NCBI GenBank assembly: GCA_004555405.1
Contig: SFIE01000003.1
Location: forward strand, 1,049-65,048
Origin: Subdoligranulum sp.
Lineage (GTDB): Bacteria > Bacillota > Clostridia > Oscillospirales > Ruminococcaceae
DNA length: 64,000 bases
Direction: 5' to 3'
Part shown: in pieces, positions 8,792-45,426 of the stretch
How the letters are laid out: each line of letters begins with the position of its first letter
Position numbering within the stretch: the first letter of the stretch is position 1
Position numbers and translations under genes: made by a program
The notes under the pieces: model-generated
The model's database searches: none
Told to the model about the DNA's origin: nothing
Seen by the model: only the letters and a program-made list of their open reading frames with translations

Positions 8792-8795
8792 TTTG

Positions 8796-24966: not shown

Positions 24967-25074
24967 GGCAGCTGCGGGCCATGGTTTTTTCGGATTCCCG
25001 GGCGGCGAATGCGCGCATTTTTATTGCGTGCCGCCCGGGATTATGCTACTATGATAAATGGTGATCCATTTGCA

Positions 25075-25260
25075 AACGGTGCCGCCGCCAAAACCCGCCG
25101 AACAAGGCGTGAGGCTGCGGATAATAGGGAAACGGGGGAAGATCCCGTGCGATCTCGTCACTGTAAGCGGGGAGCGTTTTGCCCATGATGCCACTGGAGC
25201 TTTCCGGGAAGGCGGGCCAAACGCATTGAGCCGCAAGCCAGGAAACCTGCCGCTTTGCCG
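25075..25260 (+). promoter_or_regulatory. Cobalamin (AdoCbl) riboswitch
   Basis: Read directly: AATAGGGAA (25123-25131), GGGGGAAGATCCC, CACTGTAA, GCCACTG (25190-25196) and B12 box AAGCCAGGAAACCTGCC (25235-25251). It lies about 110 nt upstream of the CbiK-like ATG. Confidence 0.8.
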
Positions 25261-25361
25261 CCGGGCCGCTTTTGCGGCGCGGTGATGCTTTGCCGCCCGA
25301 ATCGGGGCAATGCCCCGCCATCCAGACAAGGCAGCGATGTACTGCCAAAAAGGAGAAAAAC

Positions 25362-26561
25362 ATGAAAAAACTCACTGCTGCTGTTCTCAGCACCGCCGTG
25401 GCTGCCAGCCTGCTGGTTGGCTGCGGCTCCACCGCCGCTTCCGGCGCGGCTGCCCCTGCTTCGGCTGTTTCTGCCGCCGAAAGCGTGGATGCCGATCAGG
25501 CTGCGGCCGATCATGTGGCCGAATTGATCGATGCCATTTATGTGCAGACCCGCAACGAAAACACCGATGCCCAGTGCGCCGAGGCCAAGGCCGCATGGGA
25601 CGCCCTGACCGATGCCCAGAAGGCACTGGTGGAGGGCGACGAGGCCGACCCCGATTACTTTGGCCGTGACACCGGCGATGCCTCGCTGGACGATGCCCGC
25701 AATCAGGATGAGATCGGCGAAAACGAAATTCTGGTGGTAAGCTTCGGCACCTCCTTCAACGACAGCCGCGCCAAGGACATTAAGGCCATTGAGGATGCTT
25801 TGCAGGCGGCCTACCCTGACTACAGCGTGCGCCGCGCTTTCACCGCACAGATCATCATCAACCATGTGCAGGCCCGCGACAATGAATGCATCGACAATAT
25901 GCAGCAGGCTTTGGACCGCGCTGTGGCAAACGGCGTAAAGCATTTGGTGGTGCAGCCCACACACCTGATGCACGGCGCTGAGTATGACGAAATGACCGAG
26001 GCTGTAAACAGTTACGCCGACAAGTTTGAATCCGTTGCCATTGCCGAGCCCCTGCTGGGCGAAGTGGGCAGCGATGCCGCCGTGATCAACGCCGACAAAA
26101 AGGCTGTGGCCGAGGCTGTGGTGGCCGCCGCTGTGGAATCTTCGGATTACGATTCCCTGCAGGCTGCCGCCGATGACGGCACGGCCTTTGTGCTGATGGG
26201 CCACGGCACCTCCCACACGGCCAAGGTGAGCTATTCTCAGATGCAGACCCAGATGAACGAGCTGGGTTACAGCAATGTGTTTATCGGCACCGTGGAGGGC
26301 GAGCCCGAGGAAACCAGCTGCGAGGCTGTGATCGAGGCTCTGCAGGCCGCCGGTTACACCAAGGTGATCCTGCGCCCGCTGATGGTGGTGGCCGGTGACC
26401 ACGCCAACAACGATATGGCCGGGGATGACGAGGATTCCTGGAAGAGCATGATGGAAGCTGCCGACTTTGAAAGCGTTGCCTGCCAGATCGAGGGTCTGGG
26501 CCGCATTGAGGCCGTGCAGGATCTGTACATTGCTCACACTGCCGCTGCCCTGCAGGGCTGA
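25362..26561 (+). CDS. Lipoprotein homologue of sirohydrochlorin cobaltochelatase CbiK (exported)
   Basis: 399 aa from MKKLTAAVL with lipobox LLVGC-GS, an Ala-rich linker and a helical segment. A full CbiK-like domain follows (ILVVSFGTSF, VVQPTHLMHGAEYDE, FVLMGHGTSH), with both metal-ligand His contexts retained. Confidence 0.75.
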   Translation: MKKLTAAVLSTAVAASLLVGCGSTAASGAAAPASAVSAAESVDADQAAADHVAELIDAIYVQTRNENTDAQCAEAKAAWDALTDAQKALVEGDEADPDYFGRDTGDASLDDARNQDEIGENEILVVSFGTSFNDSRAKDIKAIEDALQAAYPDYSVRRAFTAQIIINHVQARDNECIDNMQQALDRAVANGVKHLVVQPTHLMHGAEYDEMTEAVNSYADKFESVAIAEPLLGEVGSDAAVINADKKAVAEAVVAAAVESSDYDSLQAAADDGTAFVLMGHGTSHTAKVSYSQMQTQMNELGYSNVFIGTVEGEPEETSCEAVIEALQAAGYTKVILRPLMVVAGDHANNDMAGDDEDSWKSMMEAADFESVACQIEGLGRIEAVQDLYIAHTAAALQG

Positions 26562-26607: not shown

Positions 26608-26646
26608 AAACGGCTCTTTCGGCTTTTCGGGAGAGCCGTTTTTTAA
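26608..26646 (+). terminator. Rho-independent terminator between the CbiK-like gene and the next lipoprotein gene
   Basis: 10-bp perfect stem AAACGGCTCT / AGAGCCGTTT followed by TTTTT. Confidence 0.7.
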
Positions 26647-26706: not shown

Positions 26707-27549
26707 ATGAAAAAGTTTCTTTCCATTGTGTGCGCCGGTGTTCTGGCCGCCGCACTCACTGCCTGCACCGCCGCCCCTGCCGCTTCGCAAAGCGCCCCGG
26801 CTTCTTCCGCTGCTTCCGTGCAGGCCCAAAGCGCCCCCGCCCTGGCCGACGGCGTGTATCAAGCCAGCTTTTCCACCGACAGCAGTATGTTCCACGCCAA
26901 CGAAGCCTGTGACGGCAAGGGCGTGCTGACCGTGCAGAACGGCCAGATGAGCATTTATGTAACGCTGGCCGGAAAAGGCATTGTAAACCTGTTTCCCGGC
27001 ACCGCCGAGGATGCCCGGAAGCCGGGTGCCGAATGGCTGCAGCCCACGCTGGAAACCGTGCATTACAGCGACGGCACCACCGACGAGGCCAACGCTTTTC
27101 TGATTCCGGTGCCCTATCTGGACGAGGAATTCGATGTGGCCCTTGTGGGCAAAAAGGGCACCTGGTATGACCATAAGGTGAGCGTGAGCGACCCCCAGCC
27201 TTTGGCCGATGACACCGCCGAAAGCGAAGTTCCGGCTGACGGCAGCTATACCGTGGAAGCCGTGCTGCAGGGGGGCAGCGGCAAGGCCAGCGTGCAGAGC
27301 CCGGCCCGGCTGACTGTGGAAAACGGCGCTATGACCGCCACGGTGATCTGGAGCAGCAAAAACTATGACCGGATGATCGTAAACGGCCAGGAGTACACCC
27401 CCACCTACGAAAACGGGCTTTCCTGCTTCACCATTCCCGTGAGCGCACTGGGCACTCCCCTGCCCGTGCAGGCCGAAACCACCGCCATGAGCCAGCCGCA
27501 CATGATCGACTACACCCTCACCTTCTCCAACCCGGAGGCCGTGCAGTGA
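26707..27549 (+). CDS. Lipoprotein with an internally duplicated roughly 100-115-aa domain, unknown family
   Basis: 280 aa from MKKFLSIV with lipobox LTAC-TA. Repeat 1 covers aa 47-163 and repeat 2 covers aa 177-276. They share ADG(V/S)Y, LTV(Q/E)NG(Q/A)M and F(L/T)IPV(P/S). Confidence 0.6.
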   Translation: MKKFLSIVCAGVLAAALTACTAAPAASQSAPASSAASVQAQSAPALADGVYQASFSTDSSMFHANEACDGKGVLTVQNGQMSIYVTLAGKGIVNLFPGTAEDARKPGAEWLQPTLETVHYSDGTTDEANAFLIPVPYLDEEFDVALVGKKGTWYDHKVSVSDPQPLADDTAESEVPADGSYTVEAVLQGGSGKASVQSPARLTVENGAMTATVIWSSKNYDRMIVNGQEYTPTYENGLSCFTIPVSALGTPLPVQAETTAMSQPHMIDYTLTFSNPEAVQ

Positions 27550-28691
27550 GAGCGGCCAAACGCATCGCTCTTGGGGCTGCCTGTGCGCTGATGCTTACCG
27601 GCTGCGCTGCCCAGGGCGCGCAGGAAATCGCTGCCCAGGGCGCCCCCGGCCCCAGCTGGGATTCCCTTTCCCCCACCGGTAAGCTTGTGCCCGAATATGC
27701 CGATGAATTTTCGGCCACACAGTACGAGGGCGGCTACACGCTTTTGCAGATCGGCGAGGCGCAGTATGTTTTGTGCCCCCGCGGCGAGCAACCCCCCACC
27801 GGCCTGCCCGAGGGTGCGGCGGTGATCGAAACGCCCATTGAAAACGCCTATCTCACGGCCACCAGCGCCATGGACTATTTTATTTCGCTGGACAGCCTGA
27901 ACGCCCTGGCTTTTTCGGGCACGAATGCCGACGGCTGGTATCTGCCCGAGGCCCGGCAGGCCCTGCAGACCGGGGCCATTGCCTATGCGGGCAAATACAG
28001 CGCCCCCGATTACGAAATGCTTTTGCAGGGCGGCTGCGGCGTGAGCATACAGTCCACCATGATCCTGCATTCCCCCGATGTGAAAGAGCAGCTGGAGCGC
28101 CTTGGCATTCCGGTGCTGGTGGAGCGCTCAAGCTATGAATCCGACCCCCTGGCCCGCATGGAGTGGATCAAGGTTTACGGCCTTTTGCTGGATAAGCTGC
28201 CCCAGGCCGAGGCGATCTTCGCCCAAAAGGTGGCCGAGCTGCAGCCCGTTTTGCAGCAGCCTGCCGCAGGCGGCACGGCGGCGTTTTTTTACATCACCTC
28301 CTCCGGGGCGGTGAATGTGCGGCGGCCCAACGATTACATTGCCCGCATGATCGGCATGGCCGGGGGCGAGTATCTGGCCCCCGATGACGGCGCCGAAACC
28401 GCCCGCTCTACCGAAACCATTCAGATGGAGCAGTTTTACGAAACCGCGCACGATGCCGATTATCTGATCTACAACAGCACCATTGACGGCGAAGTGCGCA
28501 CCGTGCAGGAGCTTTTGCAGAAAAGCACGGTGCTGGCCGACTTTGCCGCCGTAAAGACCGGGCGGGTATACTGCACCTCGAAAAACTTTTTTCAGGAGCC
28601 CATGAGCATGGCCGATTTTCTCTTGGATGTACACGCCATGCTCACCGACCCCGATTTTACCGCCGGAAAGTATTTATATAAGCTTTCCTGA
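27546..28691 (+). CDS. Lipoprotein substrate-binding protein of a BtuF/FhuD-type (class 8) ABC importer
   Basis: 381 aa with a GTG start overlapping the upstream stop (GTGA) and lipobox LTGC-AA. Size and context sit next to a FecCD permease. Confidence 0.6.
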   Translation: MRAAKRIALGAACALMLTGCAAQGAQEIAAQGAPGPSWDSLSPTGKLVPEYADEFSATQYEGGYTLLQIGEAQYVLCPRGEQPPTGLPEGAAVIETPIENAYLTATSAMDYFISLDSLNALAFSGTNADGWYLPEARQALQTGAIAYAGKYSAPDYEMLLQGGCGVSIQSTMILHSPDVKEQLERLGIPVLVERSSYESDPLARMEWIKVYGLLLDKLPQAEAIFAQKVAELQPVLQQPAAGGTAAFFYITSSGAVNVRRPNDYIARMIGMAGGEYLAPDDGAETARSTETIQMEQFYETAHDADYLIYNSTIDGEVRTVQELLQKSTVLADFAAVKTGRVYCTSKNFFQEPMSMADFLLDVHAMLTDPDFTAGKYLYKLS

Positions 28692-28721: not shown

Positions 28722-29738
28722 ATGAAGCACCCTGCTGTTCGCTGGGGCGTTTGTTTTGTTCTTCTTTTTCTGGCCGTGCTGGCGCTGCTGGCCGCCGCCG
28801 TGGCTGCGGGCAGTGCGGGCCTTACGCTGCCGCAGGTGTGCCGGGCGCTGCTGGCCCCGGGCCAAAACCCTCTGGCCGAGGGCATTGTGCGCACCATACG
28901 CCTGCCCAGGGCCCTTTCGGCGCTGCTGCTGGGCGGCTGCCTTGCCGTGAGCGGCTACCTGCTGCAAACCTATTTTTCCAACCCCATTGCCGGGCCGTTT
29001 GTGCTGGGCATCTCCTCCGGCGCCAAGCTGGCGGTGGCCATGGCCATGATCTTTGTGCTGGGCCGCGGGCGCTCGCTTTCTTCGCTGGGCATGATCGGCG
29101 CGGCCTTTGCGGGCGCACTGGCCGCCACCGGGTTTATCCTGCTGCTTTCTTTGCGCATTCGCCGCATGAGCCAGCTGATCGTGGGCGGCGTGATGGTGGG
29201 CTATATCTGCTCGGCCATCACGGATTTTGCCGTCACCTTTGCCGAGGATTCCAACATTGTAAACCTGCACAACTGGTCGCTGGGCAGCTTTTCCGGCACA
29301 AGCTGGGGCAGCGTGCGGGTAATGGCGCTGGTAACGCTGCTGGGGCTGGCGGCCTGTGGGGCGCTGGCCAAGCCCATGAACGCCTACCGGCTGGGCGAAA
29401 GCGCCGCGCAAAGCCTGGGGGTGAATGTGCGCTTGTTCCGCACGGCGCTGATCCTGGTCAGCAGCCTGCTTTCGGCCTGCGTAACGGCCTTTGCCGGGCC
29501 CATCAGCTTTGTGGGCATTGCGGTGCCGCAGCTGATGCGCGCTTTGTTTGGCACCGGCCAGCCCTTGGTGCTGCTGCCCGCCTGCTTTTTGGGGGGCAGC
29601 GCAGCCTGCCTTGGGTGCGATCTGATCGCACGCACGCTGTTTGCCCCCACCGAGCTGAGCGTGAGCTCGGTCACAGCCGTGTTCGGCGCGCCCATCGTGC
29701 TTTGGATGATGCTGCGCCGCAGCGCAGCGGAGGGTTGA
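28722..29738 (+). CDS. FecCD/BtuC-family ABC importer permease
   Basis: 338 aa with about 9-10 TM segments. The conserved GPISFVGIAVPQLMRAL segment is typical of FecCD permeases. Confidence 0.85.
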   Translation: MKHPAVRWGVCFVLLFLAVLALLAAAVAAGSAGLTLPQVCRALLAPGQNPLAEGIVRTIRLPRALSALLLGGCLAVSGYLLQTYFSNPIAGPFVLGISSGAKLAVAMAMIFVLGRGRSLSSLGMIGAAFAGALAATGFILLLSLRIRRMSQLIVGGVMVGYICSAITDFAVTFAEDSNIVNLHNWSLGSFSGTSWGSVRVMALVTLLGLAACGALAKPMNAYRLGESAAQSLGVNVRLFRTALILVSSLLSACVTAFAGPISFVGIAVPQLMRALFGTGQPLVLLPACFLGGSAACLGCDLIARTLFAPTELSVSSVTAVFGAPIVLWMMLRRSAAEG

Positions 29739-29742: not shown

Positions 29743-30852
29743 ATGGAAAAACGCTGGTTTTTTACGGAAAAAATGTGCGTGGGCTACGGCAAAAAGCCCA
29801 TTTTGCAGAATGTGGATTTTTCCCTTTCACAGGGCGAGATTTTAACCATCATCGGCCCCAACGGCGCAGGCAAAACCACGCTTTTAAAAAGCATTGCGCG
29901 CCAGATTGCCCCTTTGGGCGGGCGGGCCGTACTTTCCGGGCAGGAGCTTGCTTCACTCAGCGCCCCACAGGCCGCCCGCCGCATGGCCGTGCTGCTCACC
30001 GAGCGCAGCCGCCCCGGGCTGATCACCTGCTTTGAGGTGGCCGCCGCCGGGCGCTACCCCTACACCGGGCGGCTGGGGCTTTTGACCGCTGCCGACCGAA
30101 AAAAGGTGCACAACGCCTTGGCGCGCGTACACGCCGCCGATCTGGCCGAGCGGCAGTTCAGCCAGATCAGTGACGGGCAAAAGCAGCGTGTGCTGCTGGC
30201 CCGCGCGCTGTGCCAGGAGCCCGAGCTTTTGATTTTGGATGAACCCACTTCGTTTTTGGATATTCACCACAAGCTGGAGCTGCTGGCCATTTTAAAGCAG
30301 CTGGTGCGTGAGCAGCAGCTGGCGGTGATCCTTACGCTGCATGAATTGGATCTGGCGCAAAAGGTTTCGGACAAGATTCTTTGCGCAGCCCATGGGCATA
30401 TCGACCGCTTCGGCGCCCCCGATGAAATTTTTGTGCCCCAGTATATCGAGGCCCTGTACGGCGTGCAGCGGGGCAGCTACAACGCGCTGTTTGGCAGCCT
30501 GGAATTGCAGCCCCCTGACGGCCCGGCGCAGGTGTTTGTGATCGGCGGCGGCGGGGCGGGCATTCCGGTGTACCGCGCACTGCAGCGCCGGGGCATTGCC
30601 TTTGCCGCCGGTATTCTGGCCGAAAACGATCTGGATACCCCGGTGGCCAAGGCGCTGGCACACAGGGTGTTCACCGTGCCCGCCTTTGAGCCTGTTGCCC
30701 CGCAGGATGCCGCCGCCGCCCTGCCCGTGCTGCGCAGCTGCCGCGCCGTGGTGTGTGCCCAGCCCGCCTTTGGCACACTCAACCGCGAAAACCGCCTGCT
30801 GGTGCAGGAGGCCGAGGCACTGGGGCTCCTGCAGCCGCTTTCTGAGATTTAG
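29743..30852 (+). CDS. BtuD/FepC-type ABC ATPase with a roughly 114-aa C-terminal extra domain
   Basis: 369 aa. Walker A GPNGAGKTT, signature ISDGQKQR, Walker B LILDEPT. The ABC core ends near aa 255, followed by VFVIGGGGAGIPVYRALQRRG and further extension. Confidence 0.8.
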   Translation: MEKRWFFTEKMCVGYGKKPILQNVDFSLSQGEILTIIGPNGAGKTTLLKSIARQIAPLGGRAVLSGQELASLSAPQAARRMAVLLTERSRPGLITCFEVAAAGRYPYTGRLGLLTAADRKKVHNALARVHAADLAERQFSQISDGQKQRVLLARALCQEPELLILDEPTSFLDIHHKLELLAILKQLVREQQLAVILTLHELDLAQKVSDKILCAAHGHIDRFGAPDEIFVPQYIEALYGVQRGSYNALFGSLELQPPDGPAQVFVIGGGGAGIPVYRALQRRGIAFAAGILAENDLDTPVAKALAHRVFTVPAFEPVAPQDAAAALPVLRSCRAVVCAQPAFGTLNRENRLLVQEAEALGLLQPLSEI

Positions 30853-30978: not shown

Positions 30979-31200
30979 GGATTCTCCACTCATAAATTTA
31001 AAAAATTTATTCAAACCGCTTTACTTTGCCGCTTTAGTTCACTATAATATTGGTATGTTACTTTTATGCTCTGGTGCAAAGGTAACCGAGCGCTGATTTT
31101 TTACTGTTTCGGCGCTCCGAAAACGGAAAATACCTTGCAAGCCTGTTCGCCGCCAGCACACAGGCTATACGGCATTTTCCGCAAAGAGAGGAGAATTGTT

Positions 31201-32754
31201 ATGGAAGAAAAAACCACCGCCAAAAAAACGATGCTGGATAGAATCCTTGACAGCATCGAGCGTGCCGGCAACAAGCTGCCGGACCCCATCACGCTGTTTT
31301 TAGGCCTGTCTGTTATCGTTGTGCTCATCAGCGCACTGTGCAGCGCTTTGGGCGTTTCGGCTGTCAACCCGGCCGACGGCTCTACCATTGAGGTGTTCAA
31401 CCTGCTGTCTGCGGATGGTCTGCGCTATCTGTGGAGCAATGTGATCACCAACTTCTCGGGCTTTGCGCCCCTGGGCATGGTGCTGGTAGCCGTGATCGGT
31501 TCCTCCGTTGCGGAAAAGAGTGGCTTTCTGGTTGCTTTGATGCAGCGCTTTCTGGGCAAATCCAAGGGCTGGATCGTTTCCATGGTCGTGATTTTCCTGG
31601 GCATCAACCTGAACATTGCCGGTGATGCCGGCTTCATCGTGCTGCCCCCTCTGGCCGCCATTTTGTACATGAGCATTGGCCGCAGCCCCCTTTTGGGCCT
31701 GTATGTTGCTTTTGCTTCTGTGGCTGCCGGCTTCTGCGGCAACATCATGCTGGGCCTGTCGGACGCACTGGCCTACGGCTTTACCGAAGCCGCTGCCCAG
31801 CTGATCGACCCCAACTACAGCCAGTCCATGGCCATCAACTGGTATTTCCTGCTGGTTTCCTGCCTGATACTTACGGTCGTGGGCACCATTCTCACTGAAA
31901 AAGTGCTGGTACATCGTTTCCCCATGACCCCCGAAAAGCTGAAGGAATATGACTTTGACGAAAACGCCAACGACCTGAGCCCCAAGGAAAAGAAGGCTTT
32001 GGGCGTTGCCGGTGTTGCATTCCTGATCTTCGTGATCGTGCTGGTTCTGATGAGTGTTCCTCTGGTGGGCGGCCGTGCCCTGCTGGCCGATGAAACCGGC
32101 TCCATCACCGCAGGCGGCGCTCCGTTTACCAAGGGCATTGTGTTCACGGTTACTCTGGGCCTGTTTGTTCCCGGCCTTGCCTACGGCATTGCCACCGGCA
32201 AGTACAAGAACGACAAAGATGTTTGGGCTGATATCAGCCAGGGCTTCTCTGAAATGGGCAACTATGTGTTCATGTGCTTCTTTATTTCCATCTTCACCAA
32301 CTTCTTCAGCGTTTCCAAGCTGGGCACCGTGCTGGCCATTTCGGGTGCTGACGGCCTGAAGAACATTGGCTTTACCGGCATTCCTTTGATGATTGGCCTG
32401 CTGCTGGTGGCTTGCTTTGTCAACCTGTTCATCGGCTCGGCTTCGGCCAAGTGGGCAATTCTGGCCCCCGTGTTCGTGCCCATGATGATGCTGATGGGCT
32501 ACGACCCTGCCGTCACGCAGGTGGTGTATCGTATCGGCGACTCCATCACCAACCCCCTGAGCCCCCTGTTCACCTATATGCCTGTTATTCTGGGCTTTGC
32601 CCGCAAGTATGACAAAAAGGTCGGCCTTGGCACCATCATTGCCAATATGCTGCCCTTCTCGGTCAGCTTTGCCATTGCCTGGATCATTCAGGTGATCATC
32701 TGGGTTTCCCTCAACCTGCCTCTGGGCCCCGGCGGCAACATCTATCTTGCATAA
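31201..32754 (+). CDS. abgT: AbgT-family transporter (p-aminobenzoyl-glutamate / dipeptide-type)
   Basis: 517 aa from MEEKTTAKKTMLDRILDSIERAGNKLPDPITLF, a characteristic AbgT N-terminus. Polytopic. RBS AGAGAGGAG. Confidence 0.8.
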   Translation: MEEKTTAKKTMLDRILDSIERAGNKLPDPITLFLGLSVIVVLISALCSALGVSAVNPADGSTIEVFNLLSADGLRYLWSNVITNFSGFAPLGMVLVAVIGSSVAEKSGFLVALMQRFLGKSKGWIVSMVVIFLGINLNIAGDAGFIVLPPLAAILYMSIGRSPLLGLYVAFASVAAGFCGNIMLGLSDALAYGFTEAAAQLIDPNYSQSMAINWYFLLVSCLILTVVGTILTEKVLVHRFPMTPEKLKEYDFDENANDLSPKEKKALGVAGVAFLIFVIVLVLMSVPLVGGRALLADETGSITAGGAPFTKGIVFTVTLGLFVPGLAYGIATGKYKNDKDVWADISQGFSEMGNYVFMCFFISIFTNFFSVSKLGTVLAISGADGLKNIGFTGIPLMIGLLLVACFVNLFIGSASAKWAILAPVFVPMMMLMGYDPAVTQVVYRIGDSITNPLSPLFTYMPVILGFARKYDKKVGLGTIIANMLPFSVSFAIAWIIQVIIWVSLNLPLGPGGNIYLA

Positions 32755-32791
32755 GAAGCTTTCCGGTGACCGCTGATCCGGATCTATGAAA

Positions 32792-32826
32792 AAGAACGGT
32801 CTGGCGTGCCAGGCCGTTCTTTGGTG
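32792..32826 (+). terminator. Hairpin/terminator-like element between abgT and the M20 pair
   Basis: 13-bp stem AAGAACGGTCTGG / CCAGGCCGTTCTT (one G-T pair) followed by TTGGTGT. The T-run is weak. Confidence 0.45.
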
Positions 32827-32861
32827 TATGCACTGTCATCAACAAAACAGGAGATGGTTTT

Positions 32862-34052
32862 ATGAATTTCAAACAGCCTGCCCGTGCCCTTGAGGCCGAG
32901 ATCGCCCAGCATCGCCACTGGCTGCACCGCCATGCCGAGCTGAGCTTTCAGGAAGCCGAAACCACGCAATATCTGATCGCCGAGCTGGAAAAGCTGGGCA
33001 TTCCCGTGACTGCTTTTTCGGATTACCACGGTTGCATTGGCCATATCAAGGGCGCAAAGCCCGGCAAAACCGTGCTGCTGCGCGCCGACATTGACGCCCT
33101 GCCCACCGTAGAAAACAGCGGTGTGGACTATGCCAGCGAGCACCCCGGCGTAATGCACGCCTGCGGGCATGACTGCCACACCGCCATGCTGCTGGGCGCT
33201 GCCAAGCTGCTGAAAAATGCCGAAAGCGAGCTTTGCGGCAATGTGGAGCTTTTGTTCCAGTCGGCCGAGGAAGCCTTTACCGGCAGCCACTATTATATGG
33301 ACAAGGGCTATCTGAACGGCGTGGATGCCGCCTACGGTATGCACGTGTGGCCCGGCATTCCCGAGGGTTCCATCGATGCCACCAATGGCCGCCGCATGGC
33401 CAGCTGCGACAATTTTGTGCTGACCGTACACGGCGTTTCGGCCCACGGCAGCACCCCGCAGTATTCCAAGGATGCCATTGTGGCCGCTTCCAGCATTATT
33501 ATGAACCTGCAAACGCTGGTCAGCCGCTTTAACGACCCCCGCAACCCGCTGGTGATCACGGTGGGCACCATCAAGGCCGGCACGCAGTTTAATATCATCA
33601 CCGACACCGCCGTGATGGAGGGCACCATTCGCACCTTTGATCAGGGCATCCGCAAAACGCTGGAGCCCGCCATGCGCAAGCTGGTTACCGAAACAGCCGA
33701 GGCACTGGGCTGCACCGCCGAGCTGGAGTATCACTGGCTGGAGGAGCCCGTCATCAATGCCTACCCCGAGCTGACCGAGATTGCCCGCAGCGCCGCCGCC
33801 AAGGTGGTGGGCGAGGACGGCCTTGTGGAGACTCCCTCCGGCATGGGCAGCGAGGATTTTGGCTATATTATGGACCATATTCCCTCGGTGTTTGCCTTTA
33901 TGGGGGTGGAGAATCCGGAATACGGTGCTACCTGGAGCCTGCACTCGGATAAATTCCGCGTAAGCGACACTGCGCTGCCCATTGGCGCGGCGCAGTATGC
34001 ACAGTTTGCCTGTGACTATCTGGAACACACCGCAAAGGAGGGCGCACAATGA
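32862..34052 (+). CDS. M20D-family amidohydrolase (AbgA/HipO/N-acyl-amino-acid amidohydrolase type), copy 1
   Basis: 396 aa with MHACGHDCHTAMLLGAAK and other M20D landmarks. Confidence 0.8.
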   Translation: MNFKQPARALEAEIAQHRHWLHRHAELSFQEAETTQYLIAELEKLGIPVTAFSDYHGCIGHIKGAKPGKTVLLRADIDALPTVENSGVDYASEHPGVMHACGHDCHTAMLLGAAKLLKNAESELCGNVELLFQSAEEAFTGSHYYMDKGYLNGVDAAYGMHVWPGIPEGSIDATNGRRMASCDNFVLTVHGVSAHGSTPQYSKDAIVAASSIIMNLQTLVSRFNDPRNPLVITVGTIKAGTQFNIITDTAVMEGTIRTFDQGIRKTLEPAMRKLVTETAEALGCTAELEYHWLEEPVINAYPELTEIARSAAAKVVGEDGLVETPSGMGSEDFGYIMDHIPSVFAFMGVENPEYGATWSLHSDKFRVSDTALPIGAAQYAQFACDYLEHTAKEGAQ

Positions 34053-35227
34053 CCATTCAGGAACTGACTGCCCAGCAGAAGGACTATGTGATCGAGACCC
34101 GGCGCTGGCTGCACGCCCACCCCGAGCTGGGCTGCGAGGAGATCGAAACCACAAAATTCATTTGCGCCGAGCTGGAAAAAATCGGCGTGGAGGTGCAGAC
34201 CTTTGAGGGCATTACCGGGTGCGTGGGCACCATTCACGGCGCAAAGCCCGGCAAAACCGTGATGCTGCGCGCCGATATCGACGCTTTGCCCATGCAGGAA
34301 AAAAACCAGGTGCCCTACGCCAGCGTAAACCCCGGCGTAATGCATTCCTGCGGGCACGACTGCCACACCGCCATGCTGCTGGGCGCGGCCCGTATGCTGA
34401 TGCAGAAGCGCGATGAGCTTTGCGGCACCGTGAAGCTGATTTTCCAGATGGCCGAGGAGATCGGCCGCAAGAGCGAAGAATATGTAAAGCGCGGCGCGCT
34501 GGACAACATCGACGCCATTTTCGGTATGCACGTATGGGTGCATTTGCCCGTGGGCAAGTGCAACTTTGAGGCCGGCCCCCGCATGGCCTGCAGCGACCGC
34601 TTTACCATTCAGATCCATGGCGAAGCCAGCCACGGCAGCACCCCGTTTTTGGGCAAGGATGCCATGGTGGCTGCCGCCAGCGCCGTGATGGCCATTCAGG
34701 GCATCGTGAGCCGCATCAACGACCCGCGCAACCCGCTGGTGCTCACCGTGGGCGCCATGAACGGCGGCCAGCGCATGAATATTCTGGCCGACCATGTGGA
34801 GATCGTGGGCACCTGCCGCGCGTTTGACCGTGAGCAGCGCCGCCAGATCCCCGGCTTGATCGAAAACGCCGTAAAGAGCGCCGCCGCTGTGTACGGCTGC
34901 ACCGCTGACTGCGACTATTACTTTGGCCCCGACCCCTTGATCAACGATGACCGCGAGCTGGTATCGCTGGCCCAAAAGGCCGCCAAGGAGCAGCTTGGCA
35001 GCGACTGCCTGCTGCCGCTGGAAAAAATGACAGGCGCTGAGGATTTCTCGGTGTATCTGACCAAGGCCCCCGGCATTTATGGCTATCTGGGGGTTCGCAA
35101 CGAGGAAAAGGGCATCACGGCAGACCATCACAATCCGCTGTTTGATGTGGATGAATCCGCCCTGCCGGAGGGCGCAGGCATTTATGCCCGCTTTGCGCTG
35201 GACTATCTGAGCGCCCACGCAAAGTAA
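34049..35227 (+). CDS. M20D-family amidohydrolase, copy 2 (paralogue, translationally coupled)
   Basis: 392 aa with MHSCGHDCHTAMLLGAAR. It has an ATGA overlap with copy 1. Confidence 0.8.
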   Translation: MTIQELTAQQKDYVIETRRWLHAHPELGCEEIETTKFICAELEKIGVEVQTFEGITGCVGTIHGAKPGKTVMLRADIDALPMQEKNQVPYASVNPGVMHSCGHDCHTAMLLGAARMLMQKRDELCGTVKLIFQMAEEIGRKSEEYVKRGALDNIDAIFGMHVWVHLPVGKCNFEAGPRMACSDRFTIQIHGEASHGSTPFLGKDAMVAAASAVMAIQGIVSRINDPRNPLVLTVGAMNGGQRMNILADHVEIVGTCRAFDREQRRQIPGLIENAVKSAAAVYGCTADCDYYFGPDPLINDDRELVSLAQKAAKEQLGSDCLLPLEKMTGAEDFSVYLTKAPGIYGYLGVRNEEKGITADHHNPLFDVDESALPEGAGIYARFALDYLSAHAK

Positions 35228-35278
35228 AACAGCCCTTACGCAAAAGCATTTATATTAAAATTATATGTGACATCCTAC

Positions 35279-35318
35279 AAAAAGCGGGTTCCATACACCG
35301 GTATGGAACCCGCTTTTT
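35279..35318. terminator. Bidirectional terminator between convergent M20 genes
   Basis: 18-bp perfect stem AAAAAGCGGGTTCCATAC / GTATGGAACCCGCTTTTT with a 4-nt loop. Confidence 0.85.
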
Positions 35319-35337
35319 TGGTTTTCAGTTTTTCTGA

Positions 35338-36531
35338 TCAGAAATCTTTTTTGTCTATTGCAAGAACGGTGCGGTACAGCACCTCGGCGCCCATATCCAC
35401 ATGGCGCTCGTCCGTCCACTCCTTGCCGTGGTGGCTGATGCCCGCCACGCTGGGCACAAAGATCATGCCGATGGGAACGCCGCTATGCGCCATAGCGTTT
35501 GCATCGTGTCCGGCGCCGCTGGGCATCACCACATGGGATGCGCCCACTTCCCCGGCCACTGCGTCGATGGTTTTGATCAGCTCCGGGTCGCAGGGTGTGG
35601 CATACTGGGCACAGTTGTCGGTAAAGGTGAATTCGCATTCTTTGATCTCGGCAGCCATTGCCTGAATGGCTGCAAAGAATTCATCGGTGACCGCCTTGTC
35701 CATGTGGCGGAATTCAAAGGTTGCCTCACACTCGCCGGGGATCACATTTTCTGCACCCGGCAGCACCGAGATCTTGCCCACCGTGAACACAAGCGTATCC
35801 GAAATTTCCCGGGCCTTCTTTTCCGAGGCAAGGATCAGCCTGCACATGGCGATCAGAGCATCCCGCCGGTTGGCCATCATGGTGGTTCCAGCGTGATTGC
35901 TGCTGCCAAAGGCCCGAACCGTATAGCGCACAATGCCCACAATACCGCTTACCGCGCCGATATCCAGCTTGTGGCTATCCAGATAATCTCCCTGCTCAAT
36001 GTGGTATTCCAGATAGCAGCCAAACTTGGAGATGTCGCGCTTGGCAGCGGCCACATCCCGCAGATTCCAACCATAGCTTTGCAGATTTTTTTCAAAATCC
36101 TCGGTGCTTGTATCCACCATGCCCGTTACGCACCAGCTGCCAAAGGTGCCGCCAAGAGGGCTGGATTCCTCCAGATCAAAGCCGAACACCTCCACCGGGT
36201 GGCGCAGCACGGTTTTGCTTTCGCGAAGGCGGCGAACCACTTCCATGCCGCCGATAACCCCCAGCATGCCGTCAAACATGCCGCCGCTGATCACAGTGTC
36301 CAGATGCGAGCCGATGACAATGGATTTTGCATCCTTGTCGCTGCCGGGAAGATACCCGTGCAGGTTTCCCACGGCATCCACATCCGTTTGCATTCCCAGC
36401 TTGTCCATCTCGGCGCGCAGAGCCTGCACCACCTCGTAATAAATCGGTGTGCCGCCTGTTCTTGTGATGGAGCCATCAGAGTTTTTTCCGTAGCTTCCAT
36501 ATTTGTGAAGCCACTCGTTCACGATACTCAT
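35338..36531 (-). CDS. M20-family Zn hydrolase of the allantoate amidohydrolase / N-carbamoyl-amino-acid hydrolase type
   Basis: 397 aa. IVIGSHLDTVISGGMFDGMLGVIGGMEV is typical of the hydantoinase/carbamoylase amidase family. Confidence 0.7.
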   Translation of the reverse strand: MSIVNEWLHKYGSYGKNSDGSITRTGGTPIYYEVVQALRAEMDKLGMQTDVDAVGNLHGYLPGSDKDAKSIVIGSHLDTVISGGMFDGMLGVIGGMEVVRRLRESKTVLRHPVEVFGFDLEESSPLGGTFGSWCVTGMVDTSTEDFEKNLQSYGWNLRDVAAAKRDISKFGCYLEYHIEQGDYLDSHKLDIGAVSGIVGIVRYTVRAFGSSNHAGTTMMANRRDALIAMCRLILASEKKAREISDTLVFTVGKISVLPGAENVIPGECEATFEFRHMDKAVTDEFFAAIQAMAAEIKECEFTFTDNCAQYATPCDPELIKTIDAVAGEVGASHVVMPSGAGHDANAMAHSGVPIGMIFVPSVAGISHHGKEWTDERHVDMGAEVLYRTVLAIDKKDF

Positions 36532-36567
36532 GTTTTTCTCCTATGCAGGTTTTTGTGCGCAGGGCTT

Positions 36568-37884
36568 TTATTCGCCCTTGTGCATTTCCTCGGCGTAGCA
36601 AAGATATTCCTGCTTTGTCATGGCAGGCTTTTCCTCGGCCAGGATCTTTTTGGCCTCGGCTGCGCCGTTTTTCAGCAGATGATACGCCGTGAGCGCCATC
36701 ATCTGGGCGGGCATAATGTTGGCAATGTAGGGATTGGTGACGGCAAATTCCTTGCTGTGCAGCGCACCGGCCGTGCCGCCAAAGGTAAAGTTGAGCACCG
36801 GCATAATGGCCTGCAGATCCCCCACATCGGTGGAGGCCGTGTTCTGCAGCCCCTGAGGGATCGCCGCTGCCACCACGCCCCGGTCCATCAGCGGGCGGGC
36901 CGCCTGCCACAGCACATCGCCGGGGGCGGTTTCCTTTACGGGCAGATAGCCCTGCGCATCCACGATATCGCAGTGTGCGCCAATGGCCATGGCTGCGCCG
37001 CGGAAGGCACGGTCCACTTTCTGGCTGGCCTCGTTCATGGCGGGCAGGCTGGCGGCGCGCACCATCATATCCACGATCACCTCGCTGGGCACCACATTGA
37101 TGGCATCGCCGCCCTTGCGAATGTAGGGGTGTACGCGCACATAATCTTTTTCCTGAAAGGTCTCGCGGATCATGCCCAGCGCAGCCATGCCCAGGCTGGC
37201 AGCGTTCAGCGCATTCACACCCTCGTGCGGGGCGGCGGCTGCGTGAGCGGCCTTGCCGTGTATGTACACGGTTTTGCCCACAAAGCCGCTGCAGGCGCTG
37301 TTGCCCAGCATCAGATCCACACCGCTGTCGCGCCCGGCCATCAGGCTGTGATCGGTCACGGCCATATCGATATCATCCCATGCGCCCAGGCGGATCAGCT
37401 CGCTTTTGCCGCCGGAATAGCGCACGCCATGACTGTTTTTTACTTCCTCGCGCACCGAGGCATCCAAAAATTCCTCGGCAGGCACCGCAAAGATGGTGGC
37501 CGTGCCGCCCAGCGAAGCCTTCACCTCGGGGTCTGAAAGCGCCAGCGCCGCGCCCAGGATCGAGATCAGCTGCGCGTAGTGGCCGCAGGCGTGGGCGAAA
37601 CCGGCTTCGGTGGCGTTGGGGTGGCTGGGGCAACTGAGGCCGTCCAGCTCGCCCACCAGCGCCACATTGGGGCCGCCCTGCCCGATGCGGGCCTTTACAC
37701 CGGTAACGGCCAGCCCTTCTTCGGGGGCAAGGCCCAGCTCACGCAGGTAATCGGCGGCCAGCTTGGCGGTGCGGTATTCGTGAAAGCCCTGCTCGGCGTG
37801 GGTGAAAATATCCTCGGCCATGGCCTGCAGGCGCGGCGCGTTTTGATCAATGATCTGAATGATTCTTTCTTCTATACGGTCCAT
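36568..37884 (-). CDS. M20-family amidohydrolase/peptidase
   Basis: 438 aa from MDRIEERIIQ (RBS AAGAGGGGGAAAA) with a FAHACGHYAQ metal-binding segment. Confidence 0.7.
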   Translation of the reverse strand: MDRIEERIIQIIDQNAPRLQAMAEDIFTHAEQGFHEYRTAKLAADYLRELGLAPEEGLAVTGVKARIGQGGPNVALVGELDGLSCPSHPNATEAGFAHACGHYAQLISILGAALALSDPEVKASLGGTATIFAVPAEEFLDASVREEVKNSHGVRYSGGKSELIRLGAWDDIDMAVTDHSLMAGRDSGVDLMLGNSACSGFVGKTVYIHGKAAHAAAAPHEGVNALNAASLGMAALGMIRETFQEKDYVRVHPYIRKGGDAINVVPSEVIVDMMVRAASLPAMNEASQKVDRAFRGAAMAIGAHCDIVDAQGYLPVKETAPGDVLWQAARPLMDRGVVAAAIPQGLQNTASTDVGDLQAIMPVLNFTFGGTAGALHSKEFAVTNPYIANIMPAQMMALTAYHLLKNGAAEAKKILAEEKPAMTKQEYLCYAEEMHKGE

Positions 37885-37996
37885 TGTTTTTCCCCCTCTT
37901 TTTGAAAACCGTGCGGCGGCCCTTTGCTTTGCCGCACAGCACGGCTTTTGCGTTTTTCCTATTATAGCACACCCCGCCGGGCTGCACACATTTTTT

Positions 37997-38775: not shown

Positions 38776-39447
38776 TTATTTCCAGCCGCGGCGGGCAGGG
38801 TCCAGCGTGTCGGCTGCGGTGTACAGCAGCGCATTGCCGATGGCCGCCGCCACGCTGGAGCCGCCCTTGCGCCCCATGGCCGCAATGCAGGGCACCCCCA
38901 GCGCCTGACAGGCTGCAAAGATCTGCTGCTTGCTTTCCACCACATTCACAAAGCCCACCGGCACCGCCACCACCAGCGCAGGGCGCGCGCCCTGCTGCAT
39001 CAGCTCGGTCAGGCGCACCAGCGCCGTGGGCGCATTGCCCACGGCCACCACGGCGCCGGGGTGTTCCTGCATGGCGCGCTCCATGCTTACGGCGGCGCGG
39101 GTGGTGGCGCGGCGATCGGCTTCGGCCGCCACGGCGGCATCGGCCATATAGCACACAGCCTGCGCCCCCAGCTTTGCCAGGCTGGGCTTGCTCAGCCCGG
39201 CCAGCGCCATGTTGGTATCGGTTACCATGGCTGCACCCCTTTGCAGCGCCGCCACACCGGCCTGCACCGCACCGGGCGTAAACGCCAGATTGTCGGCATA
39301 GTCAAAATCTGCGCTGGCGTGTATGGCGCGCAGCACCACGGCGCGGTTTTCGGGCGGGATCTCTATGCCCTTTTGTGCCAGCTCGGCGGCAATGATCTGC
39401 ATGCTTGCACGCTCAATACCCGCCGGGGCCGAATGTTCCAGTTTCAA
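38776..39447 (-). CDS. cbiC: Cobalt-precorrin-8 methylmutase CbiC
   Basis: 223 aa with HASADFDY, VTDTNM, GNAPTAL and VGFVNV motifs. Confidence 0.88.
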   Translation of the reverse strand: MKLEHSAPAGIERASMQIIAAELAQKGIEIPPENRAVVLRAIHASADFDYADNLAFTPGAVQAGVAALQRGAAMVTDTNMALAGLSKPSLAKLGAQAVCYMADAAVAAEADRRATTRAAVSMERAMQEHPGAVVAVGNAPTALVRLTELMQQGARPALVVAVPVGFVNVVESKQQIFAACQALGVPCIAAMGRKGGSSVAAAIGNALLYTAADTLDPARRGWK

Positions 39448-39956
39448 TACTCCACTCCCTCTCTGGCCGCGATGCCCTTTTCATAGGGGTGTCGGCGGCA
39501 TTGCATTTCGGTGCAGTAATCGGCGGCGGCCAGCATCCAATCGGCAGGCTCGCGCCCGGTCAGCACCACTTCCAGCTGGGCCGGTTTTTGCAAAACGGCT
39601 TTTTTCAGCACGGTTTCGTCCACCAGCCCCAGCCGGCAGGCGGCGCAGGCTTCGTCCAGGATCAAAAGATCACACGGCAGCGCCAGCGCCTTTTGCAGAT
39701 TTTCGGTTTGCAGGGCGCGGGTTTCGGCTTTTTCGGCTTCATTCATCTGAAAGGCAAATTTCTGCCCGGCCTTGCCCCGCAGGATCACCGCCCCCAGCTT
39801 GCGCAGCCCTGCCAGCTCGCCGGTTTCGCCGCCCTTTAAAAACTGCACGATCACCACGGCCTCGCCGTGGCCCAGCGCGCGAAGCGCAAGGCCCATGGCC
39901 GCCGTGGTTTTGCCTTTTCCCTCGCCGCAGTAAAGATGCACCAGGCCCTGCTTCAT
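39444..39956 (-). CDS. cobO: Cob(I)yrinic acid a,c-diamide adenosyltransferase (CobO/BtuR type)
   Basis: 170 aa with the GEGKGKTTAAMG P-loop and FLKGG. Confidence 0.85.
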   Translation of the reverse strand: MKQGLVHLYCGEGKGKTTAAMGLALRALGHGEAVVIVQFLKGGETGELAGLRKLGAVILRGKAGQKFAFQMNEAEKAETRALQTENLQKALALPCDLLILDEACAACRLGLVDETVLKKAVLQKPAQLEVVLTGREPADWMLAAADYCTEMQCRRHPYEKGIAAREGVEY

Positions 39957-39959
39957 GCC

Positions 39960-41435
39960 TTATCCCTCCAGAATTTTATAGATGCGCTGCATATCCAGCG
40001 CCTTGCGAACCCCATCGGCCAAAAGATCATACTGGCTTTGCCGCCACTCGGCACGGGGCATGGCGCGTGCCTGCGGCTCAATGCCCTTGGCGCGGCACAG
40101 GCCCTCGGCCAGCGTGTCAAGGGCTTCGTCAGAGTCAAACAGCCCATGCAGATAGGTGCCCGCACACCGGCCGGACACACAGCCGTCGTACTCGCCGCTG
40201 TCAAACTGCAAAAACGGGCTTCCGTTCACCACGGTGCGGCCCTGATGGATCTCGTATCCGGTCATCTTCGCCCCCTGCAGCAGCCCGGCCAGCACACGGC
40301 CCGATTTGCGGGTGCGGGTTTTATCGGCGGTGAACACGGTTTTGCAGTCCAGCAGATCCATGCCCCGCACCTCGGGGGTGTCGCCCTCGTAGCCGTGGGG
40401 ATCGTGCAGGGTTTTGCCCATCATCTGATAGCCGCCGCACACCCCCAGCACCGGCACCCCCAGCCCGGCCAGGCGCAGAATGGCTGCCTCCAGCCCGCTT
40501 TCCCGCAGCCAAAGCAGATCGGCGGTGGTGCTTTTGGTGCCGGGCAGAATCACAAGATCCGGCTCGCCCAGCTGGGCAGGTGCGCCCACATAGCGCACCG
40601 AAAGCGCCGGGTGAGTGGCCAGCGGCGCAAAATCCGTGAAATTGCTGATATGCGGCAGGCGCACCACGGCAATATCCACTGCGCCGCAGCCGCTTCGACC
40701 CTGCAGGCCGGGGGCCAGCGAATCCTCATCGTCCACATCCACCTTGAGCATGGGCACCACGCCTGCTACCGGAATGCCCGTAAGCTGTTCCAGCTGGGCA
40801 AGGCCGGGCTGCAAAAGGCCCACATCGCCGCGGAATTTATTGATGATCAGCCCTTTTACCCGCTGCCTTTCGCTGGGCGCCAGCAGTGCCGTGGTGCCGT
40901 ACAGCTGGGCAAACACGCCGCCGCGGTCAATATCTCCGGCCAACAGCACCGGGGCATCCACCAATTCGGCAAGGCCCATGTTCACAATATCATCCTGCCG
41001 CAGATTGATCTCGGCCGGGCTGCCCGCGCCCTCGATCACGATCACATCGTTTTCGGCGGCAAGGCTTTCATAGGCGGCCAATATTTCGGGGATCAGCTGC
41101 TTTTTATAGGCAAAATATTCCTTGGCGCTCATCTGCGCCCGGATCTCGCCGTTCACGATCACCTGACTGCCCGTATCGCTGCAGGGCTTGAGCAGCACCG
41201 GGTTCATGCGCACATCCGGCTCGATGCCGGCGGCCTCGGCCTGCATATACTGCGCCCGGCCCATTTCCAGCCCATCCTTCGTTACGGCGCTGTTCAGCGC
41301 CATGTTCTGGCTTTTAAACGGTGCGGCACGCAGGCCGTCCTGTGCAAAAATGCGGCACAGCGCCGCGCACAAAAGGCTTTTGCCCGCCCCCGACATGGTG
41401 CCCTGCACCATGATGCATCTGGCTTTTTTTGCCAT
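39960..41435 (-). CDS. cobQ: Cobyric acid synthase CobQ/CbiP
   Basis: 491 aa. MVQGTMSGAGKS N-terminus and a C-terminal glutamine amidotransferase part (GVCGGYQMMG). Confidence 0.88.
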   Translation of the reverse strand: MAKKARCIMVQGTMSGAGKSLLCAALCRIFAQDGLRAAPFKSQNMALNSAVTKDGLEMGRAQYMQAEAAGIEPDVRMNPVLLKPCSDTGSQVIVNGEIRAQMSAKEYFAYKKQLIPEILAAYESLAAENDVIVIEGAGSPAEINLRQDDIVNMGLAELVDAPVLLAGDIDRGGVFAQLYGTTALLAPSERQRVKGLIINKFRGDVGLLQPGLAQLEQLTGIPVAGVVPMLKVDVDDEDSLAPGLQGRSGCGAVDIAVVRLPHISNFTDFAPLATHPALSVRYVGAPAQLGEPDLVILPGTKSTTADLLWLRESGLEAAILRLAGLGVPVLGVCGGYQMMGKTLHDPHGYEGDTPEVRGMDLLDCKTVFTADKTRTRKSGRVLAGLLQGAKMTGYEIHQGRTVVNGSPFLQFDSGEYDGCVSGRCAGTYLHGLFDSDEALDTLAEGLCRAKGIEPQARAMPRAEWRQSQYDLLADGVRKALDMQRIYKILEG

Positions 41436-41450
41436 AGACCTTCTCCCTTT

Positions 41451-42527: not shown

Positions 42528-42542
42528 GGTTTTCCCTCCTAT

Positions 42543-44252: not shown

Positions 44253-44284
44253 GATATTCTCCTATTATTTATACAAATTGTATT

Positions 44285-45393: not shown

Positions 45394-45426
45394 GGTTTTT
45401 CCTGCGGCAGCCCCAAAACGGCTGCC

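Follow-up and report, generated by a model that had tools for sequence, protein, structure and literature searches.

A cobalamin riboswitch heads an operon for an exported CbiK-like lipoprotein, a tandem NEAT lipoprotein and a BtuFCD-like importer in gut Clostridia: a candidate surface relay for corrinoid uptake

We analysed a stretch of 64,000 nucleotides from Subdoligranulum sp. (assembly GCA_004555405.1, contig SFIE01000003.1, positions 1,049 to 65,048 of the forward strand; hereafter the window, to which all coordinates refer unless another contig is named), in which a cobalamin riboswitch precedes the gene of an exported lipoprotein homologous to the cobaltochelatase CbiK. Four further genes lie 3' of the CbiK gene on the same strand, overlapping or nearly abutting, and a separate set of cobamide biosynthesis genes is found farther downstream on the opposite strand. 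The first-pass annotation of this DNA had described the riboswitch as well formed, and this is confirmed here by an Rfam covariance search (cmscan) that placed a cobalamin aptamer (RF00174) at 25060-25269 (+), with 98.0 bits against a gathering score of 31.5 (E 3.1e-23) and a match to model positions 1-189 of 189. The three strings then quoted, the B12 box AAGCCAGGAAACCTGCC, GCCACTG and AGGGAA, can all be read in the riboswitch sequence, which was the single Rfam match of the whole 64 kb. A leader or expression platform of 92 nucleotides (25270-25361, +; read from the sequence) follows and carries the ribosome-binding site AAGGAG at 25351-25356, ahead of the ATG at 25362.

The CbiK-like gene (25362-26561, +) runs from this ATG to the stop codon at 26559-26561 and encodes 399 residues, which are numbered here from the ATG. 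Its N-terminus, MKKLTAAVLSTAVAASLLVGC, shows MKK, a hydrophobic core and a classical lipobox, LVGC, that ends in Cys21 (25362-25424, +). Signal peptides were judged throughout by pattern, with [LVI][ASTVI][GAS]C as the lipobox, and by this pattern the protein is a predicted lipoprotein. An Ala/Ser-rich linker and then three predicted helices at about residues 36-91 (the helical N-domain) come next, in agreement with the lipobox signal, Ala-rich linker and helical segment of roughly 60 residues read in the first pass. They are followed by an acidic segment at residues 93-120 (25638-25721), ADPDYFGRDTGDAS.DD.RNQD, which is the most conserved stretch (mean column conservation 0.92) and had a predicted local distance difference test score (pLDDT) below 50 in the AlphaFold model; it may fold only on ligand or partner.

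The CbiK domain proper occupies about residues 121-399. It was indeed complete, as had been proposed: Pfam PF06180 scored 247.9 bits against a gathering score of 26.2 (E 1.4e-73) over nearly the whole model. The NCBIfam equivalog for sirohydrochlorin cobaltochelatase (NF047852) gave 197.4 bits, under its cutoff of 400. The AlphaFold models obtained in this work were of moderate overall pLDDT (73-75), with good domain cores and poor linkers. That of the CbiK-like protein gave template modeling (TM) scores of 0.91 to Salmonella enterica CbiK (1QGO), 0.88 to Desulfovibrio vulgaris CbiK^P (2XVX/2XVZ) and 0.84 to Porphyromonas gingivalis IhtB/FetB (9B86), proteins with which it shares 33%, 32-33% and 33% identity, respectively. 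Since the identity to these exported homologues of D. vulgaris and P. gingivalis is lower than that to signal-less Firmicute CbiKs (42-46% by tblastn), export of CbiK may have arisen more than once.

His281, Glu312 and His347 of the window protein align with His145, Glu175 and His207 of Salmonella CbiK. Two motifs had earlier been put forward as the contexts of metal-ligand histidines, LMGHGTSH and QPTHLMHG. The former stands, as the equivalent of His145, but the latter aligns with the QSLH.. strand, and the second ligand, His207, has its counterpart in VVAGDHANND; Glu175 is also kept (GTVEG). Nine residues were invariant in 81 of 81 sequences, namely His281, Glu312, His347, His201, His204, His285, Asp209, Cys72 and Cys320. 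His96 of D. vulgaris CbiK^P (position in the PDB chain), which according to the 2011 structure paper reportedly holds heme at the subunit interface, aligns with the invariant Asp209. Cys72, in the helical domain, and Cys320, in the CbiK domain, are not present in cytoplasmic CbiKs.

Export is a property of the family and not of the window protein alone, a lipobox being found in 65 of 80 homologues and a Sec-type signal in the remaining complete N-termini. More distant relatives of the unit formed by the helical domain and CbiK are embedded in proteins of 500-1600 residues that also carry SLH domains, choline-binding repeats, Ig/fn3 domains or a second CbiK domain; SLH domains, choline-binding repeats and Ig/fn3 domains are hallmarks of Gram-positive wall-anchored proteins. 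Some paralogues have altered motifs. P0435 (404 residues) keeps the lipoprotein signal and the helical domain, but has VGEENTA for MGHGTSH and AGETASLL for AGDHANND, with both catalytic histidines gone, and in P0441 and P0449 the catalytic glutamate is replaced; as judged from these motifs, the three are pseudo-chelatase variants.

Between the CbiK gene and the importer genes lies a gene that the first-pass annotation had overlooked (26707-27549, +). It encodes a lipoprotein of 280 residues (lipobox LTAC) made of two NEAT-fold domains, at about residues 48-165 (domain 1; 26848-27201, +) and 178-280 (domain 2; 27238-27546, +). On the window protein Pfam NEAT (PF05031) scored 25.3 bits, under the gathering score of 32.8, and 25 of 29 diverse homologues matched the model at E <= 0.01 (best E 9.7e-9). 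An AlphaFold model built with 84 sequences showed two confident all-beta domains (core pLDDT 80-95), and Foldseek matched these, as single domains, to IsdH-N2N3, IsdB, IsdX1, IsdX2-N5 and Hbp2 with a probability of 1.0 and TM scores of 0.65-0.70. Neither the protein nor its 84-sequence profile had a sequence match in the PDB. The family is marked by invariant SMFH and WYDH in domain 1 and GGSG, W..S..YDYM and MS.PH...Y in domain 2. The heme-ligating YxxxY of NEAT proteins is replaced by an invariant H265xxxY269 in domain 2 and by W153-Y154-D155-H156 in domain 1, an equivalence taken from the domain register and not from structural superposition. The 280-residue protein is identical to NCBI entries from Subdoligranulum metagenome-assembled genomes that bear the name 'iron transporter'.

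Cys68 of NEAT domain 1 is invariant in the 84 sequences; together with Cys72 and Cys320 of the CbiK-like protein, it could serve in a disulfide, in ligand binding or in partner contact. A pattern scan also found a terminator-like hairpin followed by a T-run between the CbiK and NEAT genes (26620-26644, +), which might give an excess of CbiK transcript over that of the transporter genes. As a conserved feature it was discarded, a comparable hairpin being present in only 8 of 29 related intergenic regions, and it is lineage-specific.

The remaining three genes complete an importer. The start of the first (27546-28691, +) overlaps the NEAT stop by 4 nucleotides, and its product is a substrate-binding lipoprotein of the BtuF/IsdE class (lipobox LTGC; Pfam Peripla_BP_2, 84.3 bits). 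It is followed by a BtuC/FecCD-type permease (28722-29738, +; Pfam FecCD, 255.9 bits) and by an ATP-binding cassette (ABC) ATPase with a C-terminal extension (29743-30852, +; Pfam ABC_tran, 109.9 bits), for which the best NCBIfam model was that of a corrinoid ABC transporter ATPase (NF007082; 228.7 bits, under the equivalog cutoff of 537). The adjacency of a BtuFCD-like importer, on which the first reading of the locus had relied, is thus borne out, with the NEAT gene intervening.

Relatives of the CbiK lipoprotein were numerous. More than 8000 protein clusters were recovered, one of them with 8524 member sequences, and close homologues of 400-414 residues occur by the thousands in gut metagenomes. 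A species-level scan with one genome per species gave at least 600 stretches, 569 of them confirmed as encoding a relative, and loci were compared for the best 80 of these at least 569 relatives. The best 80 span Lachnospiraceae (Blautia, Roseburia, Dorea, Butyrivibrio, Fusicatenibacter) and Oscillospiraceae (Faecalibacterium, Gemmiger, Pseudoflavonifractor), so that Faecalibacterium, Gemmiger/Subdoligranulum, Roseburia, Blautia and Dorea are all among the carriers. Two contigs labelled Odoribacter splanchnicus (L003) and Bacteroidaceae (L077) carry a typical Lachnospiraceae-type operon, that of L003 closely resembling the one of Waltera hominis (L004); they probably reflect bin contamination and not transfer into Bacteroidota.

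The riboswitch was a constant feature of these loci. With a profile made from Rfam-verified riboswitches, one was found at the head of the operon in 74 of the 74 loci that had enough upstream sequence, and Rfam itself confirmed it in each of seven sampled loci (90-107 bits). It lay directly 5' of the CbiK gene in 73 of them; only L060 departs from this, with a different gene order and the riboswitch ahead of the first gene of the reordered operon. Moreover, in Fusicatenibacter and Dorea (L010, L051) the riboswitch, the CbiK gene and a gene for NEAT domain 1 form a two-gene cassette among unrelated genes, far from any transporter, and therefore the pair appears to be B12-regulated in its own right.

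NEAT domain 1 follows CbiK in 80 of 80 loci, 59 of which also have the BtuF-like gene. The window type, with CbiK, a protein joining domains 1 and 2, and BtuF, was the most frequent (42 loci). CbiK is fused to domain 1 and domain 2 to BtuF in seven loci; all four units are separate in four; CbiK fused to domain 1 is accompanied by separate domain 2 and BtuF in two; CbiK is fused to both domains in two; and CbiK goes with domain 1 only in 16. Domain 2 forms the N-terminus of BtuF in eight related loci. From these fusions and splits it follows that NEAT domain 1 travels with CbiK and domain 2 with BtuF, which suggests, at the level of gene architecture, a physical order of CbiK, NEAT1, NEAT2, BtuF and permease. 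Sequence conservation decreased from the CbiK end. Median identity to the window over 54 loci was 80% for the helical domain, 78% for the CbiK domain, 64% for NEAT domain 1, 53% for NEAT domain 2, 47% for BtuF, 57% for the permease and 52% for the ATPase, the CbiK lipoprotein being the most conserved part of the operon (78-80% versus 47-57% for the transporter parts). Horizontal transfer as the sole cause of the 70-80% CbiK identity across families was considered and is unlikely, given that neighbours in the same operon show only 47-57%.

The cobamide biosynthesis operon of the window (38776-54617, -) comprises 17 genes by Pfam scans: CbiD, CbiL, CbiF, CbiG, CbiH, CbiJ, CbiET, CbiA, CobT, CobU, CobS, CobC, CbiB, CobD, CbiP, BtuR and CbiC. 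It contains no CbiK or CbiX, CobA, hem gene or cobalt transporter (Pfam, tblastn), and tblastn found no CbiK homologue in the window other than the lipoprotein; both statements had been made in the first pass with respect to CbiK. CobA and hem genes were absent from the whole window, no CbiMNQO-type cobalt transporter was seen in its operons, and in longer contigs of the same species no chelatase, CobA, hem gene or cobalt transporter appeared within 10 kb beyond either window end. Nor did Rfam yield a riboswitch of the operon's own upstream of cbiD (54618-54916), where a divergent TetR-family gene (54917-55444) follows. In five Faecalibacterium/Gemmiger loci (L008, L038, L058, L070, L076), by contrast, a single riboswitch stands before both sets: the cbi genes come immediately after the uptake genes on the same strand, and the operon opens with the exported CbiK and runs on into CbiD-CbiL-CbiF-CbiG-CbiH-CbiJ-CbiET. 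The organism of the window thus seems to have split its uptake and cbi genes and to have lost riboswitch control of biosynthesis.

Other lineages make the connection in different ways. Many Lachnospiraceae have the uptake operon followed by CbiP-CobT-...-CbiB, and in two Roseburia loci the exported CbiK comes directly after cbiA. In L082 (4048-16750) the riboswitch is followed by a NEAT domain 2-like gene, BtuF, permease, ATPase, a lipoprotein of 763 residues with two CbiK domains, and CbiD, CbiG, CbiH, CbiJ, CbiET and CbiA, the exported tandem CbiK occupying the place expected for the biosynthetic chelatase. No other chelatase, CobA or hem gene was found in the cbi clusters adjoining an exported CbiK (the window, the five Faecalibacterium/Gemmiger loci, the two Roseburia loci and L082). 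The absence of a chelatase from the cbi operon means little, however, because signal-less Firmicute CbiK genes occur isolated, away from cbi operons, as do P0511 and P0512, neither of which has a riboswitch. Another signal-less paralogue, P0508, lies, also without one, in a context unrelated to B12.

Cobalamin riboswitches also precede many exported CbiK genes outside these Clostridia. Using as query the FetB/IhtB sequence recovered from the PDB alignment, we searched metagenomes and obtained relatives of which 74 of 80 looked exported by a simple signal-peptide heuristic. At least 31 of the 66 exported-looking ones with enough upstream sequence had a cobalamin riboswitch within 400 nucleotides upstream, a lower bound obtained with nhmmer and a gene-start heuristic. 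One contig (L081) was 100% identical to P. gingivalis fetB. Its riboswitch (5181-5420; RF00174, 75.9 bits by Rfam) opens a segment (5181-8801) in which the gene of a TonB-dependent receptor (ihtA) and that of the fetB/ihtB lipoprotein follow in this order, and hence the P. gingivalis ihtA-fetB 'iron-heme transport' locus appears, as read from this contig, to be B12-regulated. The riboswitch is likewise directly 5' of genes for CbiK^P-like proteins with Sec signals in L084, L100 and L111, and a Firmicute operon (L102) has behind it a lipoprotein-CbiK lacking the helical domain, NEAT, BtuF, permease and ATPase. In many environmental CbiK^P-like proteins with Sec signals (L084, L092, L095, L100, L113, L115-L124 and others) the mature part starts with the His-rich AGGHGHKAPKK, which hints at metal handling in the periplasm.

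P. gingivalis Iht/FetB has been treated as a heme, iron or Mn-porphyrin system (PMC12094164, PMC13065792), and starvation for iron or heme is reported to leave the transcript level of the iht operon unchanged (PMC12094164). A 2026 paper reports that FetB inserts Co and Mn into porphyrin in vitro, that it is required for extracellular Mn-protoporphyrin IX (Mn-PPIX), and that it is the best chelatase match in the P. gingivalis genome (PMC13065792). This organism lacks precorrin-2 synthesis and keeps the later pathway (PMC6461909). We found no searchable paper linking Iht/FetB to B12. The riboswitches upstream of these genes and of many periplasmic CbiK genes suggest that the B12 regulon includes an entire class of 'heme/iron' proteins. 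The FetB results also contradict the premise, from which the first-pass annotation had argued, that no substrate is available to a chelatase beyond the cytoplasm; in view of them, and of the invariant catalytic triad found here, extracellular catalysis deserves serious consideration.

We believe, with a probability of about 0.8, that the locus serves the uptake of cobalt tetrapyrroles under B12 regulation. The riboswitch and the linked cobamide genes point to the ligand, and the fusions point to the direction of hand-off. By analogy with the Isd systems, the reading that best accommodates these observations would be a B12-repressed, Isd-like surface relay for corrinoid uptake. At low intracellular cobamide, the riboswitch would permit expression of the operon and three membrane-anchored lipoproteins would be made: the CbiK-fold protein on its flexible linker, the protein with two NEAT domains and the BtuF-class binding protein. 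The CbiK-fold protein would act as the outermost receptor. What was once the chelatase cleft, inherently suited to a cobalt-tetrapyrrole product, would accommodate the cobalt tetrapyrrole, with the conserved His/Glu/His turned towards the metal; such binding would be non-catalytic. The ligand would then pass from CbiK to NEAT domain 1, to NEAT domain 2 and to the binding protein, which would dock on the BtuCD-type permease/ATPase for ATP-driven import. That the CbiK protein is mainly a receptor or hand-off protein, rather than an enzyme, we propose more tentatively, at somewhat less than even odds. The proposal of the first pass that the fold had been recruited as a surface corrinoid- or tetrapyrrole-binding protein fits the conservation of the riboswitch, the CbiK-NEAT and NEAT-BtuF fusions and the wall-anchor relatives, although its premise about substrates is contradicted and one of its two motifs was misassigned.

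Several points weigh against such a relay. The ligands known for NEAT pockets are planar metalloporphyrins, and a complete cobamide, with its nucleotide loop, takes up more space. It is not obvious why a protein that merely binds should keep its catalytic triad invariant, or why it should be the slowest to evolve in the operon. In the leader (25270-25361) several hairpins were predicted, but we found no canonical terminator or obvious helix sequestering the ribosome-binding site. The binding protein had only a weak match in the PDB and no close solved relative, and its specificity rests on context. Lastly, heme or porphyrin is what the exported homologues described so far bind, and these have remained active as chelatases (PMC13065792; CbiK^P structures 2XVX-2XVZ).

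In the main alternative, the exported CbiK would be an active, extracytoplasmic cobalt chelatase that inserts Co2+ into a metal-free early tetrapyrrole salvaged from the surroundings, where other microbes would have released it; sirohydrochlorin, factor II and precorrin-2 are the candidates. Import of the cobalt tetrapyrrole would be the task of the NEAT protein and the BtuFCD-type importer, and completion of the cobamide that of CbiL and later enzymes. A single step would supply both tetrapyrrole and cobalt, which would account for cbi clusters that have neither a chelatase nor the early genes. The invariance of His281, Glu312 and His347 in all 81 sequences and the high conservation of the protein agree with this, as does the in vitro Co and Mn chelatase activity of the exported homologue FetB (PMC13065792). 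So do the gene contexts: the window operon lacks CbiK/CbiX, CobA, hem genes and a cobalt transporter, with none within 10 kb beyond the window ends, and the exported CbiK heads the cbi operon in Faecalibacterium/Gemmiger and directly follows cbiA in Roseburia. NEAT domains do bind planar metalloporphyrins, Co-PPIX included (PDB 3QZP), and P. gingivalis, without precorrin-2 synthesis (PMC6461909), has fetB behind a cobalamin riboswitch. On the other hand, signal-less Firmicute CbiKs with 42-46% identity are encoded singly and not within cbi operons; in many Lachnospiraceae the uptake genes are linked to the late or salvage functions CbiP, CobT and CbiB and not to ring synthesis; free sirohydrochlorin or precorrin-2 is no established gut metabolite; and neither catalytic histidine survives in paralogue P0435, which shares the N-domain. 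On balance we regard a salvage chelatase as unlikely, if worth keeping in mind. The wider idea that gut Clostridia, and P. gingivalis with FetB, insert cobalt at the surface and import the product through NEAT/BtuFCD or TonB/BtuFCD into a pathway without cytoplasmic chelatase or early genes seems to us similarly doubtful.

A true Isd-like iron system taking up heme or porphyrin, with the link to B12 secondary, is suggested by the match of the NEAT fold to heme-relay proteins, by the NCBI name 'iron transporter' of the NEAT protein, and by the description of exported CbiK homologues, D. vulgaris CbiK^P and P. gingivalis IhtB/FetB, as heme binders (PMC12094164; PDB titles), already mentioned in the first pass. 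We consider it quite improbable: the cobalamin riboswitch was present in 74 of the 74 loci whose upstream sequence was long enough, many species have cobamide genes in physical linkage with the operon, an invariant Asp takes the place of the heme-ligating His96 of CbiK^P, neither NEAT domain retains the canonical YxxxY, and the P. gingivalis iht transcripts are unresponsive to iron/heme starvation (PMC12094164). The exported His/His/Glu site might instead capture Co2+ itself for B12 synthesis, as in other riboswitch-controlled cobalt uptake. In favour of this are its intact metal site, the crystal structure of CbiK^P with cobalt (2XVZ), the His-rich start (GGHGHK) of the mature part in many periplasmic relatives and the lack of a CbiMNQO-type cobalt transporter in the window's operons. 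But the partners here are NEAT and Peripla_BP_2/FecCD proteins, an importer class that carries chelated metals or tetrapyrroles and not free ions, and the NEAT fusions argue for a tetrapyrrole ligand, so that capture of the bare ion appears to be about as improbable as heme uptake.

The proposed corrinoid relay shares elements with several known systems. In P. gingivalis, ihtABCDE likewise encodes an exported CbiK-fold lipoprotein (IhtB/FetB) beside a BtuFCD-like transporter (PMC12094164) and, as found here in L081, behind a cobalamin riboswitch; it differs in its Gram-negative setting, with an outer-membrane lipoprotein and a TonB-dependent receptor, and in having neither a NEAT protein nor a helical N-domain. 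CbiK^P of D. vulgaris (2XVX, 2XVY, 2XVZ) is also exported with an intact Co site, but it is soluble and periplasmic, not a lipoprotein, and has no NEAT partner, and the window protein has Asp for its His96. Salmonella CbiK, of the same fold and with the same His145/Glu175/His207, is a cytoplasmic protein of 264 residues encoded within the cbi operon, whereas the window protein is exported and has an N-terminal extension of about 120 residues and an insertion of about 18. The Isd relay of Staphylococcus aureus and Bacillus anthracis (IsdH/B/A/C, IsdX1/2, IsdE, IsdF) likewise leads from NEAT domains to a Peripla_BP_2 lipoprotein and a FecCD-type permease. It is under Fur control and anchored by sortase/LPXTG, in contrast to the riboswitch and lipobox found here; moreover, in the window YxxxY is replaced (HxxxY, WYDH), sequence-level matches to solved NEAT proteins are lacking, and a chelatase-fold protein heads the chain. 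Finally, BtuJ, BtuH, BtuK and BtuG of Bacteroides thetaiotaomicron, with BtuB, are riboswitch-controlled, lipid-anchored surface proteins that pass cobamides to a transporter (PMC13616437), but they consist of beta-propellers, DUF4465, and Ig-like plus novel domains in an outer-membrane setting, with nothing CbiK-like or NEAT-like.

Some neighbouring features of the window deserve mention. Within the cbi operon, between cobC and cobS, a short P-loop open reading frame of about 110 residues (44285-44617, -; start MIFVTGPLYSGKK) occurs besides the annotated CobU-like gene, and may be a truncated or split cobinamide kinase. Between the uptake and cbi operons (31066-37989) there are an AbgT-family transporter gene and four M20-family peptidase genes, two per strand, a set that resembles an abg-type cluster for the utilisation of aminobenzoyl-glutamate, a folate breakdown product. 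In contigs of the same species (L164/L165), serS and parA/parB are found within 10 kb past the right end of the window (64000), and the region is probably near the replication origin.

Neither the folds nor exported CbiKs and NEAT relays as such are new; the novelty lies in finding them combined behind a cobalamin riboswitch, in an arrangement that is widespread among Gram-positives. The first-pass annotation knew of no characterised Gram-positive, B12-regulated, importer-linked version, and in the searchable literature we too found no description of a CbiK-NEAT-BtuFCD system under such a riboswitch. B12-family cofactors are a contested currency in the gut, and their capture by Bacteroides is known in detail. 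For Gram-positive Firmicutes, a September 2026 review states that extracellular cobamide capture 'remains entirely uncharacterized' (PMC13616437), and the locus described here is a concrete, widespread and testable candidate for it. The results also suggest a fresh look at Iht/FetB and CbiK^P as parts of the B12 regulon. Should the exported CbiK be a salvage chelatase after all, it would define a biosynthetic pathway that spans compartments and would answer how P. gingivalis uses a partial corrin pathway. If the corrinoid relay is correct, NEAT domains and a chelatase fold would have been re-used for corrinoids, genome-based calls of B12 'producers' that count the exported protein as the pathway chelatase would need correction, and the system would offer a target for understanding or manipulating the competition for B12 among butyrate producers.

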